A stretch of DNA of 50,100 bases from Chiloscyllium plagiosum (Eukaryota): assembly GCF_004010195.1 (NCBI RefSeq), contig NC_057719.1:14551760-14601859 (forward strand), given 5' to 3'. Numbering within the stretch: position 1 is the first letter of the stretch; each line of letters opens with the position of its first letter. Below, piece by piece: positions 7,021 to 48,999 of the stretch. Both the position numbers and the translations under genes were made by a program. A model generated the notes under the pieces. It made no database searches. It saw nothing but the letters and a program-made list of their open reading frames with translations, and was not told where the DNA came from.

Positions 7021-8960
7021 ATAAGAACATAAGAAATAGGAAGAGGAGTAAACTATTCAGCCCCTCGAGCTTGCTCAACCCTTCCATAGGATGATGGCCA
7101 ATCTGACATTCCTCATATCTATTTCCTTGCCCTTTCCCCCATGTCCCTTGATTCCCCCACTAATCAAGAGCCAATCTATCACAGCCCTAAATACACACAA
7201 GGACTCGGACCCCACAGCTCTCTGTGAGTCCAAAGACTCACAACCTTCTTAGAGAAGAAATTCCTCCTCATCTCTTTCCTAAATTGGTGCCGCTTTATTC
7301 TGAGACCATACCGTCTGGCCCATGAAGAGAAACGTCCTCTCAGCATTTACATTTTCAGGAATTATATATGTTTCAATGAGATCACGTCTCATTTTTGTAA
7401 TTTCCAATGAATAGAGTCACAACGTTGTTCATTAAACGATCCCTCCATAAGGGAATCCTCCTCGTGAACCTTCTCTGGATTACCGCCACTTAAATGATAG
7501 CTTCCCTGAAATAAGGGGACAAAACTCCTCACAGTACTGATGTGATCTCACCAGCACCTTATACAGTTAGCAAGACTTTTCCTGAAATCCTATTAAAATA
7601 AGGACCAACATTCCATTAACCTTCCTGACTACCTGCCGCACCTGTGTGCTTGCTTTCTATGTTTCATGTGTGAGGCTTCACAAGTCCCTTTGTGTTGCAG
7701 CTTTCTGCAGTTTTCTCCATTTAAATAATATTCTGTTCTCTTGCCCTCCCTTCCAAAATGAACTGTCATACATTTTCCCACATTATACTCCATTTGTCAA
7801 CTCCTATTTAACCTATCAATATCTCTCTGTAAACTGTTTGTATCGCTCTCAAACCTACTTTTCCACCGGTTTTTATGTCGTCTGCAAATTTGGCTCCAAC
7901 CCATTCAGTTCCTTCCTCCAAGTCATTGTTAGATATTGTAAACAGTTGTGGTCACAGCATTGATACCTACTGGTAATAGGTTGCCAGCCTGAGAAAGAAC
8001 CCTTTATTCGCTGTTTCCTATTTAGGAGTCAAATCTCTACCCACACCAATATATCTCCTCCAACATCATGGGCTCTTATCTTGTAACTTAACCTTTTTTG
8101 AGGTATGTTTTCAAACAGGTGTCCAAATAAACAGGTGTCCAAATAAAACACCTCTACTGGTTTCCCTCTATCCAGTTTGGTTGAGTCTTTCACAAAAAAC
8201 TCTTGCCAGACACGATTTGCTTTCATGAAGCCATGTTGGCTCTGCCTGATTATATTATGTTAAAAAACACACAGCACACAGATTATAGTCCAACAGTTTA
8301 ATTGGAAGCACACTAGCTTTCCAATTAAACTGTTAGACTATAACCTGGTGTTGTGTGATTTTTAACTTTGGACACCCCAGTCCAACACCGGCATCTCCAA
8401 ATCATGATTATGTTATGCTGGTTTTCCAAATGTTCTGCTATTTCTTCCTTAAAAATTTATTCCAACATTTTTCTAACAATGCTGGGCTAATCCATCTCCA
8501 CCAACCCATTTCTGCCTCCCTCCCTTTCTGAATAGAGGTGTCACATCAATCGTTTTCCAAGCCTCTGGTACAATTCCAGATCTTTGGAAAGTTACAACCA
8601 AAGCATCCATGACCTTTGTAGCTATCTCTTTAAGATCCTAACATGAAGCCATCATGGCCAAGGAACTTATCTGTGTTCAGGCCCATTAGTTTGCCTATTA
8701 CTACTTCTCTCATGATGATGGTTCTTAATTTCTCCTCTATATTCTTTAGTATTAATGCAATGTTCAAAGTACCTTCCACTGTAAAGATTGATTCAAATAT
8801 CTGGTTAACTCCTCTACATTTCCTTGTTCCCCATAACTGTCTCCTCAGATTCATTTTTGAAGGGGCCTATGTTCTCTTTGATTTCTCCCTTTCATTGTTT
8901 TTACATCTAAAGAAGCTCATACTGTCAGTTTTTTGTATTTGCCTTCATAGTTTCTGGGCT
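7021..8960 (-). mobile_element. Decayed CR1 LINE, RT region to 3' end
   Basis: The tail reads ATAAGAACATAAGAAATAGG. Minus-frame remnants include KLDRGKPVEVFYLD, KIRAHDVGG and GKLMGLNTDKFLGHDG. Confidence 0.85.
8260..8404 (+). mobile_element. Fold-back PLE-terminus mini-element, family A, with 13-bp TSD
   Basis: Imperfect inverted arms at about 8259-8308 and 8319-8366, then a 38-nt tail. TSD: TGATTATATTATG (8247-8259) and TGATTATGTTATG (8405-8417). Confidence 0.85.
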
Positions 8961-9350: not shown

Positions 9351-10293
9351 TTCCCCTCCAAGCACGGGATTGATGTGGATTTCACCAGTTTCCCAAGGAC
9401 AGAAATCTCCCCCCGTCCTCACCTTCCACCCCACTAACCTCCAGATACATCGCATCATCCTTCACCATTTCCACCACCGGCAAACGCATCCCACCACGAG
9501 AGATATATTTCCTTTCCCACCCTATCCACTTTCCATAAAGACTATTCCCCCTGCGACTCTCTTGTCAGGTCCACATCCCTCACCAGCCCATCCTCCCCTC
9601 CCAGCACTGCCACTGCAGGAATTGCAAAACCTGCACCCACACCTCTCCCCTCACCTCCGCCCAAAGCCCCAAGGAGCCTTCTACATCCATCAGAAATTTG
9701 CCTGCACTTCCACACATCATTTACTGTATCCATTGCTCCCGATGTGGTCTCCTCTATGCTACTTACACGTCGCCTACTTGCAGAACGCTTCAGAGAACAT
9801 CTCCGGGACACACGCACGAAGCAACCCCACTGCCTTGTGGCTGAACACTTCAACTTCCCCTCCCACTCCACCAAGGACATGCAGGTGCTGGGCCTTCTCC
9901 ATCGCAAAACCCTAACCACCCAACACCTGGAGGAAGAACACCTTGGGACCCTCCAACCATGCCGGATTAATGTGGATTTCACCAGTTTCCTCATTCCCCC
10001 TCAGAATGCCTCATCTTCCAACTCGGAATCCTTCAATTACACCGGATTAATGTGGATTTCACCAGTTTCCTCATTCCCCCTCCCAGATCCAACCTTTCAA
10101 CTCAGCACTGCCCTTATGACCTGCCATATCTGTCCATCTTCCTTCCCCCCATCCACTCCACCCTCCTCTCTGACCTATCACCTTCACCCCATCTCCATCC
10201 ACCTATTGCACTCTCAGCTAACTTTCCCCCAGGCCCACCCCCCTCCAGTTTACGTCTCCATCCCCTCGGCTCACAAGCCTCATTCCTGATGAA
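9350..10293 (+). mobile_element. Penelope-like element fragment: RT C-terminal linker, GIY-YIG endonuclease pseudo-ORF and pyrimidine-rich 3'UTR, ending in a truncated hammerhead
   Basis: Frames encode VLTFHPTNLQIHRIILHHF...PTTRDIFP, an IYCIxCSRCGLLY-like motif, and RLLAERFREHLRDTR...VAEHFN...SHSTKDMQVLGL...GTLQP..INVDFTSF. It ends with CATTCCTGATGAA. Confidence 0.92.
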
Positions 10294-15155: not shown

Positions 15156-15612
15156 AACATTTGCCAGCCAAGCTGATGGAAACGATCTAAATCTATAACA
15201 ATATATCATACAGTGAATACAATTAATTTGCAATATTTCATTCTAGCTTCATTTACGCTTTTTCAAAACCAAAATGGCTTTTAAACTATGAAATTAAAGT
15301 GTAGATTTTAAGGCTGTGCTGTTCACTACACATCAACTACACATGAAAAATGGCAATTTGTTTATGTTTGTTTACAACTTATAAATATATTTGCTCAGAT
15401 AGCTCTTTTTTTCTGTTTTAAGTCCTGTGTGTTTTGATCTCCTAAATATCAAGCATTGTTTCCGTTTCTGTGTCCAGTTGGTTTTAAGACAAGTATGTTA
15501 ATTTCTGGAATAATACTCCCAACATGTGTGCCAGATTCATTTCCAGCCTCAAGCAGAGTTACAGAAAAAGCACATTGAGGGTGGAACCTGACCTGAATTC
15601 CCAAACTTTAAC

Positions 15613-15813
15613 GAGGCGAAAGTGAGGACTGCAGATGCTGGAGATCAGAGTCGAGATTAAAGTGGTGCTGGAAAAGCGTAGCAGGTCAGGCAGCATCTGA
15701 GCAGCAGGGAAATCGACGTTTCGGGCAAAAGCTTTTGCCTGAAACGTTGATTTTCCTGCTCCTCAGATGCTTCCTGCCCTGTTGTGCTTTTCCAGCACCA
15801 CTCTAATCCAGAC
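15613..15813 (-). mobile_element. Fold-back PLE-terminus mini-element, family B, with 15-bp TSD
   Basis: Arms of about 83 bp (15649-15731 and 15732-15814) meet inside hammerhead stem II (GGCAAAAG|CTTTTGCC). A 36-nt tail lies at 15613-15648. TSD: TTCCCAAACTTTAAC (15598-15612) and TTCCCAAATTTTAAC (15814-15828). Confidence 0.92.
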
Positions 15814-17609
15814 TTCCCAAATTTTAACCCAGGACAAGCCTTCATAACAGGGGATACCTTGCTAGTAACAATGATCCCAGTATCCGAGGGGCAAGAAGGC
15901 TGACTGGGTTGAGAAACATATCAGCCATGATCAAATCGTGGAACAGACTTGACAGGCTGAGTGGCTTAATTCTACATCATTTAACATTACTTTCATAAAC
16001 ATGTATTTCTCAACACACAAAATTGACTACATTTCAAAAGTCCTTAATTAACTGGAAGCCAAATCTTTAGATGACATTGTTTTGCTTTCAGCTGGAATTA
16101 TGTGTCCGAAGTGTCCAAAATAATTAATGGTTTTAATGGAGCAAATAATGGCTGCGCTCCAAAAATATTGGAATGACATTGAATGAGGCATTCATGCCCG
16201 ATAAGAATGGAGTGTTTTTAAAATGTTTGCCCTGTTAAACTTGTGCCCTATCAACATGTAATCCAGTTCTGAGCACCAGGTTGACACTGCATGAGGCACA
16301 TGTATCTGGTGAGAGTCGAGAGAATTTAAACTGTTAGAATATAGTGGTGAAAGCAGAATCTATAATTGCTTTTAAAAACAAGGCAGATGAATGTTTAAAG
16401 AAGAGAAAATTGATTCTGTATGAAGAATAAACGGGGATAGGACTAAGCATACACTTCTTTCAGGTAATTGGCATCAGCATGATAGACTTATAGCTTCCTG
16501 TACAGTGGAAATTATGCAACTTCGCTGGGCTCAAGTTATATACAAAACAGTACAGAATCAACTTGCAATGTTATAGCAATAAAGTTATTCGGGCATTTAA
16601 ACAAACGAGTAATAGCATGATATGGTGTAGTATATAGTGCAGAAATAGTGTTCTGAAAAATTGCCAAATTAGTTTAAAGTAAGCATTTCCAAACAGTGTG
16701 CAAGTGGTTGAGCTGTAAAGCACATCTGTGGCACAGATTTTCCGTTGACCTCCTACTGAAAGACAGCACTAGACTGTAGACATCACAAGCATGTTAAATA
16801 TCCCACATAAGATGGATGTTGCCTTTTTGTCACAGAGCCATCTCTTGGAATCCTGCTTGTTTCTTTGATTTGTTGCTTTCTGCTATATGCTTTAAAAGAA
16901 ATAAATATACTTCTACAGTACTACATTCGGCAGAACAAGTTCCTGAAGCCCAATAACTGTGAGCAAATTTGTTAAGTTATGGCAATTACATTAAATCCAC
17001 AATAATTCAAAGATTCAAAATCTTAAATATGAATGTCTTATTTTGTTTGGAAGGTTAATTTATTCTCAGTACCAGAATGATCTTCCCTATTTTAATCCTA
17101 CAATACAAGCAAATAAATATGTTTAGAAGCTGACTCTATCTCTTTAAGTGCTTTTTTATTAAAGTCTAAGATTTGTGCATACCAGCGGTGATTTTAATTG
17201 CAAATCCGAAAATCTCGGCAGTTGGGAGCCTCAAAGTCTGTGTTTCATCTGGACAGGACTCTATCCTGACCTTCTTTTATGGCTTCTAACATATTTTGCT
17301 GCTACACCCCCCCCCCCTCCCCCCACCTCCAAAAGTAGGCAATATCTGCCATGTGAAAGCATGTGCTTATGAGAAGTAATATAACTTGACTGACTGGCAC
17401 ACTCAGAAATCATACCCATGTTATACCATTTATCAAAAGCGCTCTATAAAGTTGTGATTTTTTTTGCCACACTGTGCAGAAACATAACAGTGCTATCTCT
17501 CCTGCCAATTAGTGTTTTTTCAATCATTTACCATTCAGTAGCCATAATGTAATCAGACCTGGTGTAATGTTAGCCTACCTGTATTTTTGAAAGTTTATCA
17601 CCTCTCCTG

Positions 17610-28229: not shown

Positions 28230-28357
28230 AAGAATCTATTGATCTCTGATTTGAGAAATATTCAAAGACTCTGTTTCCATCAGCTTTTGAAGAAGAGAGC
28301 TCCAAGTTCCTAAAACTCACTGTCCTCTCTATCTTAAATGAGTAACCCCTGACTTGA

Positions 28358-28564
28358 TAAAAACAAGTGTTGGAAAGCAGAGTCTAGATTAGAGTGGTGC
28401 CGGAAAAGAACAGCAGGTCAGGCAGCATCCAAGGAGCAGGAAAATCAACGTTTCAGACAAAAGCCCTTCATCAGGAATGATGAAGGGCTTTTGCCCAAAA
28501 CATTGATTTTCATGCTCCTTGGATGCTGCCTGACCTGCTGTGCTTTTCCAGCACCACTTTAATC
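28358..28564. mobile_element. Fold-back PLE-terminus mini-element, family B, with back-to-back hammerhead motifs and 15-bp TSD
   Basis: Arms at 28385-28473 and 28478-28566 surround a GGAA spacer. TSD: TAACCCCTGACTTGA (28343-28357) and TAACCCCTGATTTGA (28565-28579). Confidence 0.92.
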
Positions 28565-28588
28565 TAACCCCTGATTTGAATACAGTGA

Positions 28589-31105: not shown

Positions 31106-31792
31106 TGTAATCTTATTAATGACTGAGGTCAGGCTAATCAGCCTATAGATTCCTGCCTTCTGCCTCTTTCTCTTCTTAAATAGGAGTGTTACAGGAGCTC
31201 TTTTCTCCCCAGCCCTCTGGCACCCTCCTTGACTCCAGTGATTCGTGAAAGATCACCAGCAATGCCCTTACAATCTCCTCAGCTATCGTCTTCAGGACTC
31301 TGGGGTGTAGTCCATTTGGTCAAGGTGAATTATCCACCTTCAGACCTTTCAGCTTCCCCAGCACCTTCTCCTTAGTGATGACCACAACATTTACCTCTGA
31401 CTCCTGATACTCATGAAGTTCTGGGATGTTGCTACTCTCTTCCACCATGATGACTGAGGCAAAGTACCTATTCAGTTCGTCTGCCATTTCTTTGTTTCCT
31501 ATCACTACTTCTAGTACCTCATTTTCCAGCAGTCCAATGTCCATTACTGCCTCTCTCTTACCTCCTGATATCTAAACAAAAACTTACAATTATTTTTATA
31601 TTACTAACGAGCTTATTCTCAAATTTCATCTTCTTCCCCCTTATTGCTTCTTGCAATATCCTCTGCTGGTTTTGAAAGGCTTCCTAATCTTCTCGTTTTT
31701 CACTAATCTTCACCACATTGGATGACTTTTCTTTTGCTCTTATGCTGTCCTTGACTTCCCTTATCAGTCACGGTTGCCTCGTCCTCTCCTTA

Positions 31793-31937
31793 TTCTGGAT
31801 CAATGGTGCTGGAAGAGCACAGCAATTCAGGCAGCATCGAGGAGCTCAATGCTGCCTGAATTGCTGTGCTCTTCCAGCACCATTGATCCAGAATCTGGTT
31901 TCCATCATCTGCAGTCATTGTTTTTACCTCATTTTTA
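31793..31937 (+). mobile_element. Fold-back PLE-terminus mini-element (B-related) with perfect 46-bp arms and 16-bp TSD
   Basis: 31792-31837 is the exact reverse complement of 31849-31894. TSD: CCTCGTCCTCTCCTTA (31777-31792) and CCTCATCCTCTCTTTA (31938-31953). Confidence 0.92.
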
Positions 31938-32334
31938 CCTCATCCTCTCTTTAGTATGTTTCTTCCTTCTTGATAGGAATTTCTGTTGTGCCTCTCGAAT
32001 TACCCCCAGAAACTCCTGGCATTGTTGCTTCACTGTCTTCCCTGCTAGGCTCGCCTTCCAACCAACTCTGACTAGTTCCTCCCTCATGTCTTTGTAGTTT
32101 CCTTTACTCAGTTGTAACACCATTACATCTGATTCCAGCTTCTCCCTCTTAGACTGCAGGGTGAATTCTATCATACCATGGTCACTGCTCCCTAGGGATT
32201 CCTCCACCTTAAGCTCCCTGATCAAATCTGCCTCATTACACATCATCCAATCCTGAATTGCCTGTGCCTGAGTGGGATCTGCCACAAACTTCTCCTATTC
32301 AGCCTCTCCCATTAGCTCAAGCCCCCCAACCCTG

Positions 32335-35105: not shown

Positions 35106-36013
35106 TGTAAACAGGACGTTTCTTTAAAGACTGACAAATGTTAGATCTCCAACTTAAAATAACAGCTCTCCACCACCTTCATGACGTCAACTAGAGATAG
35201 GCATTAAATGCTGGCCAGCCAGCGAAGCCCGCATCCCACAAATGAAATAAAATAAAAAGTACATAAGTCCATGCAAGTCACATTTCCAATTGTACACTTT
35301 CCTGGTAAGGTTAACAAGGAATGCCAGGAGAGAATACTTACACTGTTAATTATGGATGTACTTCAAATTCTGCATAAAACCTACTTCTTCCACCGTACCT
35401 TTGATCATGCAGCTTAAAGTCTCCTCTCAGAGCTTGCTGTCAGCTCTGTAAAGCATCTTGGAATATTTCACTTTATTTAAAGGGACTATTATTATCAATA
35501 AAAGTTTTTTTGATTAAAGTTTTGCAGCATGTTAGTGGGCAATTAATCTGCAAATGCTGAAACCTCATGAAAATTACGGAGACATTAAGGGTGAGATGCA
35601 GTTTTCGCAAAACTCGTGCTGAAATGTTGCAAATCATCCGACAAATTGGGGCAATTTGCAATTGACAGGGTGTATCTTTTTCACCATTGGCTCATTTGCA
35701 TGCACAGTTCATACACCATTATTTTTTCTCAGCAAATTCTGGCAATTATTTTGACAAGAGTCAGAGAGTGATAGAAATGTACAACACAGAAACAGACCCT
35801 TCAGTCCAACTTGTCCAGCTCGACCAGATATCCTAATCTAATCTAGTCCCATTTGGACAATGTTCCCCTAAACCCTTCCTATTCATAAACCCATCCAGAT
35901 GCCTTTTAAATGCTGCAATTGTACCAGCCTCCACCAGTTCCTCTGGCAGCTCATTCCATACACGCACCACCCTCTGTGCTGTGGTTCTGTTCGCCGAGCT
36001 GGAAGTTTTTGTT

Positions 36014-36053
36014 GCAAACGTTTCGTCCCCTGGCTAGGCGACATCATCAGTGC
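36014..36053 (-). ncRNA. Hammerhead ribozyme motif, family E (left arm, minus strand)
   Basis: GCA-CTGATGA-T-GTCgCCT-agcc-AGGgGAC-GAAA-CGTT-TGC. Confidence 0.85.
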
Positions 36054-36275
36054 TTGGGAGCCTCCTGCGAAGCGCTTCTTTGATGTTTCCTCCGGTGTTT
36101 ATAGTGGTCTGTCCCTGCCGCTTCCGGTTGTCAGTTTCAGCTGTCTGCTGTAGTGGTTGGTATATATACTAACCACTACAGCGGACAGCTGAAACTGAAA
36201 ACCGGAAGTGGCAGGGACAGACCACTATAAACACCGGAGGAAACATCAAAGAAGCGCTTCGCAGGAGGCTCTCAA

Positions 36276-36315
36276 GCACTGATGATGTCGCCTAGCCAGA
36301 GGACGAAACGTTTGC
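36276..36315 (+). ncRNA. Hammerhead ribozyme motif, family E (right arm, plus strand)
   Basis: GCA-CTGATGA-T-GTCGCCTAGCCAGAGGAC-GAAA-CGTT-TGC. Confidence 0.85.
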
Positions 36316-39038
36316 AACAAAAACTTCCAGCTCGGCGAACAGAACCACAACAACGAGCACCCGAGCTACAAATCTTCGCACAAACTTTGACCACCCTCTG
36401 TGTCAAAAGGTTGCCCCTGAGGTCCCTTTTAAATTTTTCGCCTCTCACCCTCAACCTATGTCCTCTAGATCTGGACTCCCCCATCCCAGGGAAAACACCT
36501 TGTGTATTTATCCATGCCCTCATGAGATTATAAACCTCTATAAGGTGATCCCTCAGCCTCCAACTCTCCAGGGAAAACAGCCCCAACCTGTTCAGCCTCT
36601 CCCTGTAGCTCAAATCCTCCAACCCTGACAACATCCTTGTAAATCTTTTCTGAATCCTTTCAAGTTTCATAACACCTTTCCTATAAGAGGGAGACTAGAA
36701 TTGCACACAATATTCCAAAAGTGGCCTAACCAATGTCCTGTACAGCTGCAACATGACCACCCAACTCCTGTACTCAGTGCTCTGACCAATAAACGAAAGC
36801 ATACCAAACGCCTTCTTCACTATCCTATCTACCTGCAACTCCACTTTCAAGGGACTATGAACTTGCACTCTAAGGTCTCTTTATTCAGCGACACTCCCCA
36901 GGTGTATAAATCCATTAAGTGTATAAATCCTGCCCTGATTTGCCTTTTCAAAATGTAGCACTTCACATTTATCTAAATTAAACTCCATCTGCCACTCCTC
37001 AGCCCATTGGTTCATCTGATCAAGGTCCTGTTGTAATCTGAGGTAACCCTCTTCACTATCCACTACACCTTCAATTTTGATGTCATCTGCAAACTTACTA
37101 ATTATTACCTCCTATTATTCACAATCAAATCATTTATATAAATGACAAAAAACAGTGGTCTCTGCACTGATCCTTGTGGCACACCACTGGTCACAGGCCT
37201 CCAGTCTGAAAAAACAACCCTCCACCACCACCCTCTGTTTTCTACCTTGGAGCCAGTTCTGTATCCAAATGGTTACTAGTTCTCCCTGTATTCCATGAGA
37301 TCCAACCTTGCAAACAGTCTACCATGAGAAACCTGGTCGAATGCTTTACTGAAGTCCACATAGATCACATCCACCACTCTGCCCTCATCAATCCTCTTCA
37401 TTTGTTCTTCAAAAAAAACTCAAGCAGGTTAGTGAGACATGATTTCCCGTGCTCAAACCCATGTTGACTATCCTTAATCAGTCCTTGCCTTTCAAAATAT
37501 ATGTACATCCTGTCGCTCAGGATTCCTTCCAACAACCTGCCCATCACCAATATCTGGCTCACCGGTCTATAGTTCCCTGGCTTTTCCTTAACACCTTTCT
37601 AAAAAAGTGGCACCACATTAGCCAACCTTCAGTCTTCCTGCACCTCATCCATGACTATCGATGATACAAATATCTCAGCAAGGGGCCCAGCAATCACTTC
37701 CCTAGCTTCCCACAGAGTTCTAGGCTACACCTGATCTGATCCTGGGGATGTATCCACCTTTAAGATATCCAGCACCTCCTCCTCTGTAATATGGACATTT
37801 TTCAAGATGTCACCATCTATTTCCCTACATTCTATATCTTTCAAATCCTTCTCCACAGTAAACACTGATGCAAAATACTAATTTAGTATCTCCACCATCT
37901 CTTCTGGCTCCACACAGAGGCTGCCTTGCTGATCTTTGAGGGGCCTTTTCTCTCCCTAGATATCCTTTTGTCCTTAATGTATTTATATAATCCCTTTGGA
38001 CTCTCCTTAACCCTATTTGCCAAAGCCATTTCATGTCCCGTATTTGCCCTCCTGATTTTCCTCTTAAATGTACTCCTACTGCCTTCATACTCTTCTAAGG
38101 ATTCACTCAATCTCTGCTGTCTATACCTGGCATACGCTTCACATTTTTTTCTTAACCAAAACCTCAATTTCTCCAGTCATCCAGCATTCCCAACACCTAC
38201 CAGCCTTGCCCTTCACCCTAACAGGAATGTACTGTCTCTGGACTCTTGTTCTCTCATTTTTGGCTTCCCATTTTTTAGATGTCCCTTTACCTGCAAACAT
38301 CTGCCCCCAATCAACTTTGAAAGTTCTGGCCCAATACCCTCAATATTGATCCTCCTACAATTTACAACTTCAACTAAAGTATACACAGGGTATGGGTTTC
38401 ATGTAGGAGACGTACCAGCTTACAAACTGGTGAGAGTCCCATGTCAACTGTTTTTGTGAAGACCTGCCATATTACTGCCAATCACACAACTAAATGGGCA
38501 GTGATGGACCTTCTAAAGGATATAGGGACCCAGAGGCAAAGATCCCACCTGCTGATAGCTACCAGAAAAACCAAAGACTAGTTAATCATCATTGCTCAGC
38601 AGCACTACTGCAGAATGGTGGCCAATGCCGATAATATTCCCAGCTGAGACCAAGACTGCTGAAGGCTTTGGGCACAGGAGTACCACCAGAGGGTGGGGGT
38701 CATGGAGAACCTAGATGAGGTTTTGTTTCAATTCATTCAAAGGATGAGGGTGCCGCTAGCCAAGCCAGCATTTATTGTCCATCCCTAATTGCCCAGAGGC
38801 CAGTTAAGAATCAACCACATTGCTGTGGCTCTGGAGTCACGTGTCGGCCAGACCAAGTAAGGATGGCAGTTTTCACCCCTAAAGGGAACCAGATGGGTTT
38901 TTCAAATAATCGATAATGGATTCATGGTTATCATTAGACTCTTAATTCTAGATTTTGCTGAGTTCAAAGTACACCATTTGCCATGGTGGGATTCAAACTC
39001 ATTTCCCCAGATCATTACCTGGGTCTCTGGATTAACAG

Positions 39039-39198
39039 CTGAAAATGTGTTGCTGGAAAAGCNNNNNNNNNNNNNNNNNNNNNCTTATGCCCGAAACGTC
39101 GATTCTCCTGTTCCCTGGATGCTGCCTGACCTGCTGTGCTTTTCAAGCAACACATTTTCAGCTCTGATCTCCAGCATCTGCAGACCTCACTTTCTCCT
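39039..39198 (+). mobile_element. Fold-back PLE-terminus mini-element, family B, containing an assembly gap; 15-bp TSD
   Basis: The arms are AGCTGAAAATGTGTTGCTGGAAAAGC and GCTTTTCAAGCAACACATTTTCAGCT. The hammerhead 3' half is CTTATGCCCGAAACGTC, and there is a 35-nt tail. TSD: TCTCTGGATTAACAG and TCTTTGGATTAACAG. Confidence 0.88.
39063..39083. other. Assembly gap (21 N)
   Basis: Direct reading. Confidence 1.
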
Positions 39199-48454: not shown

Positions 48455-48965
48455 GATTACAGCTTCAATCCATCCGTCCAACTCGTCCAAGCCAACCAGG
48501 TATCCTAAATTAAATCAGTCTCATTTGCCAGCATTTGGCCCATATCCCTCTAAACCCTTCCTATTCATATACCCAACCAGATGCCTTTTAAATTTGTAAT
48601 TGCACACATTTCCACCACTTGTGGCAGCTCATTTCATACACATACCACCCTCTGCATGGAAAAGGTTGCCTTAGGTCCCTTTTCTATCTATCTTCTCTCA
48701 CCTTAAACTCATGCCCTCCAGTTTTGGAGTCCCCCACCCTGAGAAAAAGACCTTGACTAATCACCTTATCTACACCCCTGATGATTTTATAAACCTCTAT
48801 AAGGTCATCCTTCAGCATCCAACACTCCAGGGAAAATAGCCCCAGCTTATTCAGCCTGTCCCTGTAGCTCAAACCCTCCAACTCTGGCAAAAGATTTGTA
48901 AATCTTTTCTGCAACCGTTCAAGTTTAACAAATCTTTCCGATAGTGACGAGACCAGAATTGAACA
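48455..48965 (-). mobile_element. CR1 3' fragment
   Basis: VKLERLQKRFTNLLPELEGLSYRDRLNKLGLFSLE...LIEVYKIIRG. Confidence 0.92.
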
Positions 48966-48999
48966 TATTATTAAAACTATCAATAATCGAACGCATTTA

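Follow-up and report, generated by a model that had tools for sequence, protein, structure and literature searches.

A probable 5'-truncated Penelope-type insertion behind a hammerhead-bearing palindrome in a shark genome

Two hammerhead motifs sit in the arms of a near-perfect palindrome, facing away from each other, in a stretch of 50,100 nucleotides of Chiloscyllium plagiosum DNA (hereafter the window). This raises the question of how such a structure was assembled, and of whether its outward-pointing units are used by the host or are simply what an insertion left behind. Our answer, in which we have strong confidence, is that the locus is a dead, 5'-truncated insertion of an abundant shark retroelement of the Penelope/Poseidon type (a PLE); the route of assembly that we favour below is, within this answer, just slightly more probable than not.

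The palindrome consists of two arms of 185 bp (35980-36164 and 36165-36349), with no spacer, as the preliminary description had it, and with 6 mismatches; the longest arm obtained in 30 shuffles of a 1401-nt region was 22. Its centre, TATATATA (36161-36168), is an AT-rich site holding the I-Y codons at the end of the parent endonuclease domain. On the right, the plus strand continues into a 40-nt PLE "tail" (36350-36389), which was absent from that description. This tail is found on one side only and stops at the family-wide 3' end, so that the insert amounts to 411 bp. The perfect 13-bp TSD that had been claimed is there: ACCACCCTCTGTG is identical at 13 of 13 positions at 35966-35978 and 36390-36402 (both +), occurs just twice across the whole window, and gives a score of 13 in a repeat search that reached at most 10 at 60 random places. 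At the left junction, a single unmatched C (35979, +) forms with the next four bases a repeat of the last five letters of the TSD; this stretch (35974-35983), in which the insert opens by repeating the last five target bases, could reflect primer slippage at initiation.

The element interrupts the C-terminal region of the ORF2 of a CR1-like LINE on the minus strand (35761-37000), which we take to be CR1 from its peptide pattern; a related ORF at 791-1525 matches Pfam RVT_1. Once the insert is removed, the flanks form one CR1-like repeat, which the window also holds whole, without a break at the site, at 12330-11811 and 48470-48972. RNA reads coming from other CR1 copies, 49 of them, run straight from the left-flank letters into 36390. 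The TSD is thus a real one. A CR1-like copy also carries an inverted pair of its own (131-214 and 430-513, 84 bp, 98%, with a 215-bp spacer).

The insertion had also been called recent, with many CpGs retained. The CpGs are indeed kept: the insert has 23 for 26.8 expected, near expectation, against 546 for 2155 (about a quarter) window-wide. The arms differ by 3.2% (95% CI 1.2-6.9%), and the CR1 copies in the window by 18-35%, far above this; by such a comparison, the insertion is young relative to its CR1-like host repeat. A recent date is nevertheless unproven, given this interval, the 65% chance that a 13-bp TSD would still be identical at 3.2% divergence, and the low mutation rate reported in a shark (7e-10 per base per generation; PMC10587355). 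At such a rate the insertion need not be young in years, and gene conversion between the arms would mask its age further.

Each arm is a pseudo-LTR (pLTR), since one short stretch holds the end of an ORF, a hammerhead and the start of an ORF. On the minus strand, 36034-36165 carries the last 43 codons and the stop of a PLE ORF, which is open on the left arm and has one stop on the plus arm. On the plus strand, 36285-36389 carries the first 35 codons of the RT ORF, whose ATG lies at the start of helix II; over 36234-36398, this frame of the right arm and tail is 80% identical to residues 2-56 of protein P0010. The 43-residue peptide of the left arm found 5 HMMER matches among 1.84 billion representatives. 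Three of the five (P0002-P0004) are uncharacterized Chiloscyllium punctatum proteins with 64-74% identity, to whose C-termini the peptide aligns, after a GIY-YIG-like region; P0002 (XP_072420853.1) is the one at 74%. The other two (P0005 and P0006) are repetitive proteins with no relation to the family, and we set them aside. A word-index protein search with the same peptide gave no match, and two sequence patterns gave 0 matches in metagenome contigs.

P0002, taken as a query, led to four RT proteins among 696 candidates. P0010, also from C. punctatum, matches RVT_1 (E 3.9e-11), and its end is 91% identical to P0002, while P0002 is 56% identical to P0008, which has an RT plus a GIY-YIG domain (E 0.008). 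The Pfam GIY-YIG matches lie below the cut-off (P0004 E 0.028, P0008 E 0.008, P0002 none), the motifs themselves being visible. No full-length parent was found in which a single protein has both ends: P0010 breaks off in the thumb, and P0002 is without the RT core. These two uncharacterized proteins, at 80% and 74% to the arm peptides, represent a diverged subfamily in another species or lineage. The arms nevertheless lead, as anticipated for a PLE, to RT and GIY-YIG-like proteins, and what characterizes an EN+ PLE is found here: a parent RT, a C-terminal GIY-YIG endonuclease (below the Pfam cut-off), a pLTR with an ORF end, a hammerhead and an ORF start, a tail at one end (40 nt, in the 30-40 bp class), 5' truncation and an inverted copy. 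Judged by its sequence, the parent is a Penelope/Poseidon-type EN+ retroelement, the clade label being drawn from its likeness in layout to PAc of Anolis carolinensis. The window itself holds no coding parent, as had been noted: tblastn with P0002-P0004 and P0008-P0011 returned the arms and two short GIY-YIG-like matches of another family. A MITE or TIR DNA transposon is refuted by the 40-nt end asymmetry and by the parent RT and GIY-YIG, and the non-LTR retrozyme class does not apply to units that are inverted, rather than in head-to-tail tandem, at a single locus in the window. In the P0009 entry, the shark PLE protein shares 46% identity with a protein that bears the label Dicrocoelium dendriticum (trematode), and 56% with an ENA protein; both of these end 10-12 residues past I-Y-x-P-L, while the ORF of the shark continues for about 30 residues more and enters the pLTR.

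The hammerheads have the traits of minimal PLE hammerheads, namely CUGANGA, GAAA and NUH, helices I and II, and a palindromic helix III region. The one on the plus strand (36276-36315) is of type I, with a 3-bp helix I, no helix III, the palindromic AAACGTTT at the helix III position and a GUU cut site after 36312; the one on the minus strand (36014-36053) has the core letters and a consensus helix II. The core CTGATGA...GAAAC-GTT starts at 36279 (+) and 36050 (-), and counting from the ATG the cut is at +28 and the ends are at +65 and +105. A TATA-like CTATAAA, which would be a putative promoter and whose T-I-N codons are kept in P0002-P0004, lies 54 nt before each core (36225-36231 on the plus strand, mirrored at 36104-36098 on the minus strand); it occurs 12 times window-wide. 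These positions agree with the preliminary description, and with cores and CTATAAA on opposite strands either side of the centre, the units do point outward. That both hammerheads are intact holds for the core letters, but on the right helix II is weakened from -6.9 to -1.9 kcal/mol by a G>A change private to that copy, at 36300 (+), and both are without helix III. Rfam gave no hammerhead match, either at the gathering score or at E<=10, and its miRNA matches, below the gathering score, reflect the hairpin only.

Read-through RNA is predicted to fold into a hairpin of -402 kcal/mol, in which the pair probability of helices I and II is 0.0; the folding thus speaks for the suggestion that this hairpin would mask both ribozymes. 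That the dsRNA could feed Dicer or ADAR, and that the DNA could extrude a cruciform, are further possibilities raised in the preliminary description. The suggestion that RNA initiated internally could fold the ribozyme fares well for the left arm in a short RNA that begins near the TATA-predicted start (predicted helix II probability of 0.87), but not from the centre (0.11), nor for the right arm (0.002 and 0.004, respectively). In the RNA run X21 (polyA single-cell, 2% read), read ends show no pile-up at the cut site, a polyA run being ill-suited to show self-cleavage. Among the metazoan PLE hammerheads, those of Schistosoma offer a point of reference: a single motif showed no detectable cleavage as a monomer and dimers had low activity, and opposite-strand pairs lie 100-700 bp apart (PMC4209133). 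Our motifs share with this group a short helix I, a bulged base before helix II, the lack of helix III and a palindromic 15-16 region; they differ in their GUU cut triplet and in the weakened helix II of one copy (PMC4209133).

The PLE family is very abundant and has a common 3' end. This end, at 36389/90, is reached by 227 contigs in run X1 and, in X21, by 73 RNA reads; organism B (run X13) has 220 such contigs, and X5 none among the matches listed (24 of 3,427). Beyond it, the copies continue into mixed AT-rich DNA (agreement 0.37). Other contigs leave the arm at 36164 (18 in X1 and 34 in X5, among the matches listed), and their upstream letters, translated by eye, are the nine residues that precede I-Y in P0002. 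The centre is therefore a point at which the element was cut short, within the end that encodes the endonuclease. The insert is thereby read as two 5'-truncated pLTR copies, one inverted, without a tail and close to the family consensus (35980-36165, -), the other direct (36164-36349, +), as supported by the protein matches and by loose contig ends before 36164; the two share 2 parent-derived bases (AT, 36164-36165). Among the matches listed (40 of 271), 93-99% of the X1 family depth at 36199, 36209, 36272 and 36300 shows the left-arm letter, so these changes are private to the right arm, and the left arm is indistinguishable from the family by its letters. In a read comparison that drew on just 30 bp of the left arm, and in which family copies swamped the signal, no read or contig was traced to the locus.

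The family is present in X21, with a strand bias toward the PLE sense that is visible at the family level only. Family-level RNA mismatch places are 33 for A>G, which is no more than the 41 for T>C, 45 for G>A or 66 for C>T, and RNA depth in 30-nt bins shows no promoter step. In X1, family DNA depth rises across the hammerhead (36285-36344), from 0.82M to 1.19M and 2.06M. A start at the cut site (36312) or just past it may be common among the copies, which would point to cleaved RNA as a template; the 30-nt bins and old subfamilies confound this signal. X13 has the 3' end in common and a far lower depth over 36225-36314, which suggests that the subfamily expanded mainly in organism A.

The locus is not alone in its window. 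An inverted-repeat scan with spacers of up to 30 found four more head-to-head palindromes, belonging to two other hammerhead-like families: 15655-15808 (15598-15828 with its TSD-like repeats and tail), 28385-28566 (28343-28579), 31792-31894 (31777-31949) and 8279-8347 (8247-8417). Each has a TSD-like repeat of 12-15 bp with one mismatch and 29-40 extra bases on one side. The TSD-like scores are, in this order, 13, 13, 10 and 11, for a null in which 3 of 60 random places reached 10 and none 11. Their centres show an overlap of 2 or loops of 3, 4 and 11 nt, and the extra sequence is one-sided in 5 of the 5 palindromes examined.

To the family, anatomy, shared 3' end and TSD observed at the locus, we add insertion steps modelled on the anole PAc. 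In the anole, the Poseidon protein was shown to nick as well as extend the two strands and to start RT at two internal sites, between which the tail lies; ribozyme cleavage is dispensable in vitro (PMC11167929). By analogy, the GIY-YIG endonuclease would make staggered nicks 13 nt apart in the CR1 copy, and the bottom-strand end would prime reverse transcription at the outer start site, 36389. The cDNA would halt after about 226 nt at the AT-rich spot and fold back; copying would then proceed as far as the inner start site, which lies 40 nt before the point where the cDNA began. Once the new end was joined to the remaining end of the target, the outcome would be a head-to-head palindrome with a single tail. 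The hammerheads, the TATA-like motif and the ATG would be passengers of the pLTR rather than a designed two-way switch, and transcription through the locus would yield a dsRNA hairpin. Fold-back of the first cDNA is the somewhat favoured variant of this explanation, because three neighbouring centres keep loops of 3-11 nt; such loops and the overlap of 2 are as self-priming would leave them, and head-to-head junction palindromes have been read as self-priming on an antisense template (PMC3846280). Against it, 2 bases would have to be untemplated or slipped for a centre to be perfect, whereas joining two cDNAs needs just a 2-bp AT/AT overlap; two of the centres, including the main one, are perfect, and no case has more than a single tail. 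The end product is alike under both variants. The target counts against the explanation as a whole: PAc prefers AT-rich targets, and the target here is not AT-rich (PMC11167929).

Within the same family, a dimeric PLE protein might instead prime both target strands on one RNA, one subunit per RT start site, with both cDNAs reaching one 5' end, or one break, of that RNA, where the 2-bp self-complementary overlap would join them. We consider this a possible but less probable account. It draws on PAc, which cleaves and extends both strands, has two start sites bounding its tail and is predicted to be dimeric (PMC11167929), on the one-sided extra sequence of all five palindromes, on a partial primer-template likeness at both junctions (5 of 7 at the left one), and on at least two X5 contigs that leave the element at 36352 among the matches listed (12 of 152). 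The parent-derived loops fit snap-back more simply, however; PMC11167929 reports no difference in start sites between strands and nothing on inverted copies; and the near-symmetry is partly selected, because of the spacer limit of our scan. A wider, non-exhaustive search found no clear long-spacer pair bounded by a TSD in the window. That the strict pattern of one tail, with arms cut near the same point, should record a PLE dimer priming both strands at two RT start sites is a tentative idea, and we found no paper stating it in the open-access literature.

The remaining accounts fit less well than the truncated insertion that we prefer. The compact, TSD-bounded shape, with cis signals at both ends, could recall a mobile non-autonomous unit (MITE-like or retrozyme-like) copied whole, and records that match on either side of the centre number 23 in X1 and 24 in X5, but 2 in X13; yet there is one copy in the window, its ends are asymmetric and its arms consist of coding ends of a PLE. 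To the left of the centre, the depth (25,730 and 31,601) comes largely from the single shared base 36164 (17,539 and 21,407), so that many copies with this centre are not shown, and we rejected reading this depth as many shared palindromes. Such a unit is improbable. A slightly poorer candidate is a functional locus, retained as a source of hairpin RNA or as a two-way ribozyme switch used by the host: the predicted 185-bp duplex, the presence of the family in RNA and the matching siRNAs given by Penelope inverted repeats in Drosophila (PMC3681739) would suit it. But a single arm has 5 of the 6 differences, among them one that lies in helix II and another that makes a stop, which looks like decay; the private letter at 36199 is seen in 0 of 77 RNA reads of X21 (2% of one polyA run), and the cut site has no pile-up. 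Least probable of all is a fold-back artefact of the assembly, for which one can invoke the missing locus-specific reads and a palindrome of the window that encloses an N gap (39063-39083); against it, the arms differ at 6 sites, the left one carries the family letter at the four private positions, and a TSD and collinear CR1 flanks stand on both sides.

In published terms, the locus is a clean example of a known arrangement. EN+ PLE complex insertions combine an inverted 5'-truncated pLTR with a one-sided tail of 30-40 bp, and the rotifer Pen2a has a 9-bp TSD, a 31-bp tail, an overlapping inverted pLTR and a two-way TATATATA (PMC8557442; PMC3846280); the two-way TATATATA and junction palindromes are thus already in print (PMC3846280). 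Our insertion resembles these in its head-to-head inverted pLTR, one-end tail, TSD and first ORF codons within the pLTR, and differs in consisting of two truncated ends alone, in its 2-bp overlap and 13-bp TSD, and in its shark host (PMC8557442; PMC3846280). As in PAc, the ORF starts at hammerhead helix II and a tail lies between the two ends; the cut falls 26 nt after the ATG in PAc and 28 nt here, and the insertion end lies 111-118 nt into the ORF in PAc and 105 nt here, a likeness of layout; PAc loci, however, are described as tandem (PMC11167929). The head-to-head pLTR, the one-sided tail, the TSD, the opposite-strand minimal hammerheads and the siRNA idea are all published for Penelope, and the family itself may already be catalogued. 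We found in the open-access literature no paper joining Penelope, chondrichthyan and palindrome, and in its titles and abstracts none on twin priming in PLEs.

A single locus of this kind has little importance by itself. As a class, however, such stubs are a large natural record of how PLE insertion is completed, a step that has yet to be defined, and they may supply shark transcriptomes with dsRNA in bulk. If dimer priming were true, stub-dense shark genomes with several families would make the unsettled second-strand step of PLEs readable from genomes alone.

Other PLE traces are scattered over the window. A further inverted pair of the second family (39037-39163) encloses the single N gap of the window. 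At 9440-10290 (+) and 33377-33249 (-) lie GIY-YIG-like coding remnants, decayed and with no Pfam match, of a different PLE type; we presume them to be Neptune-like. The former contains a 64-bp internal repeat and is followed by a hammerhead-like start near 10285.
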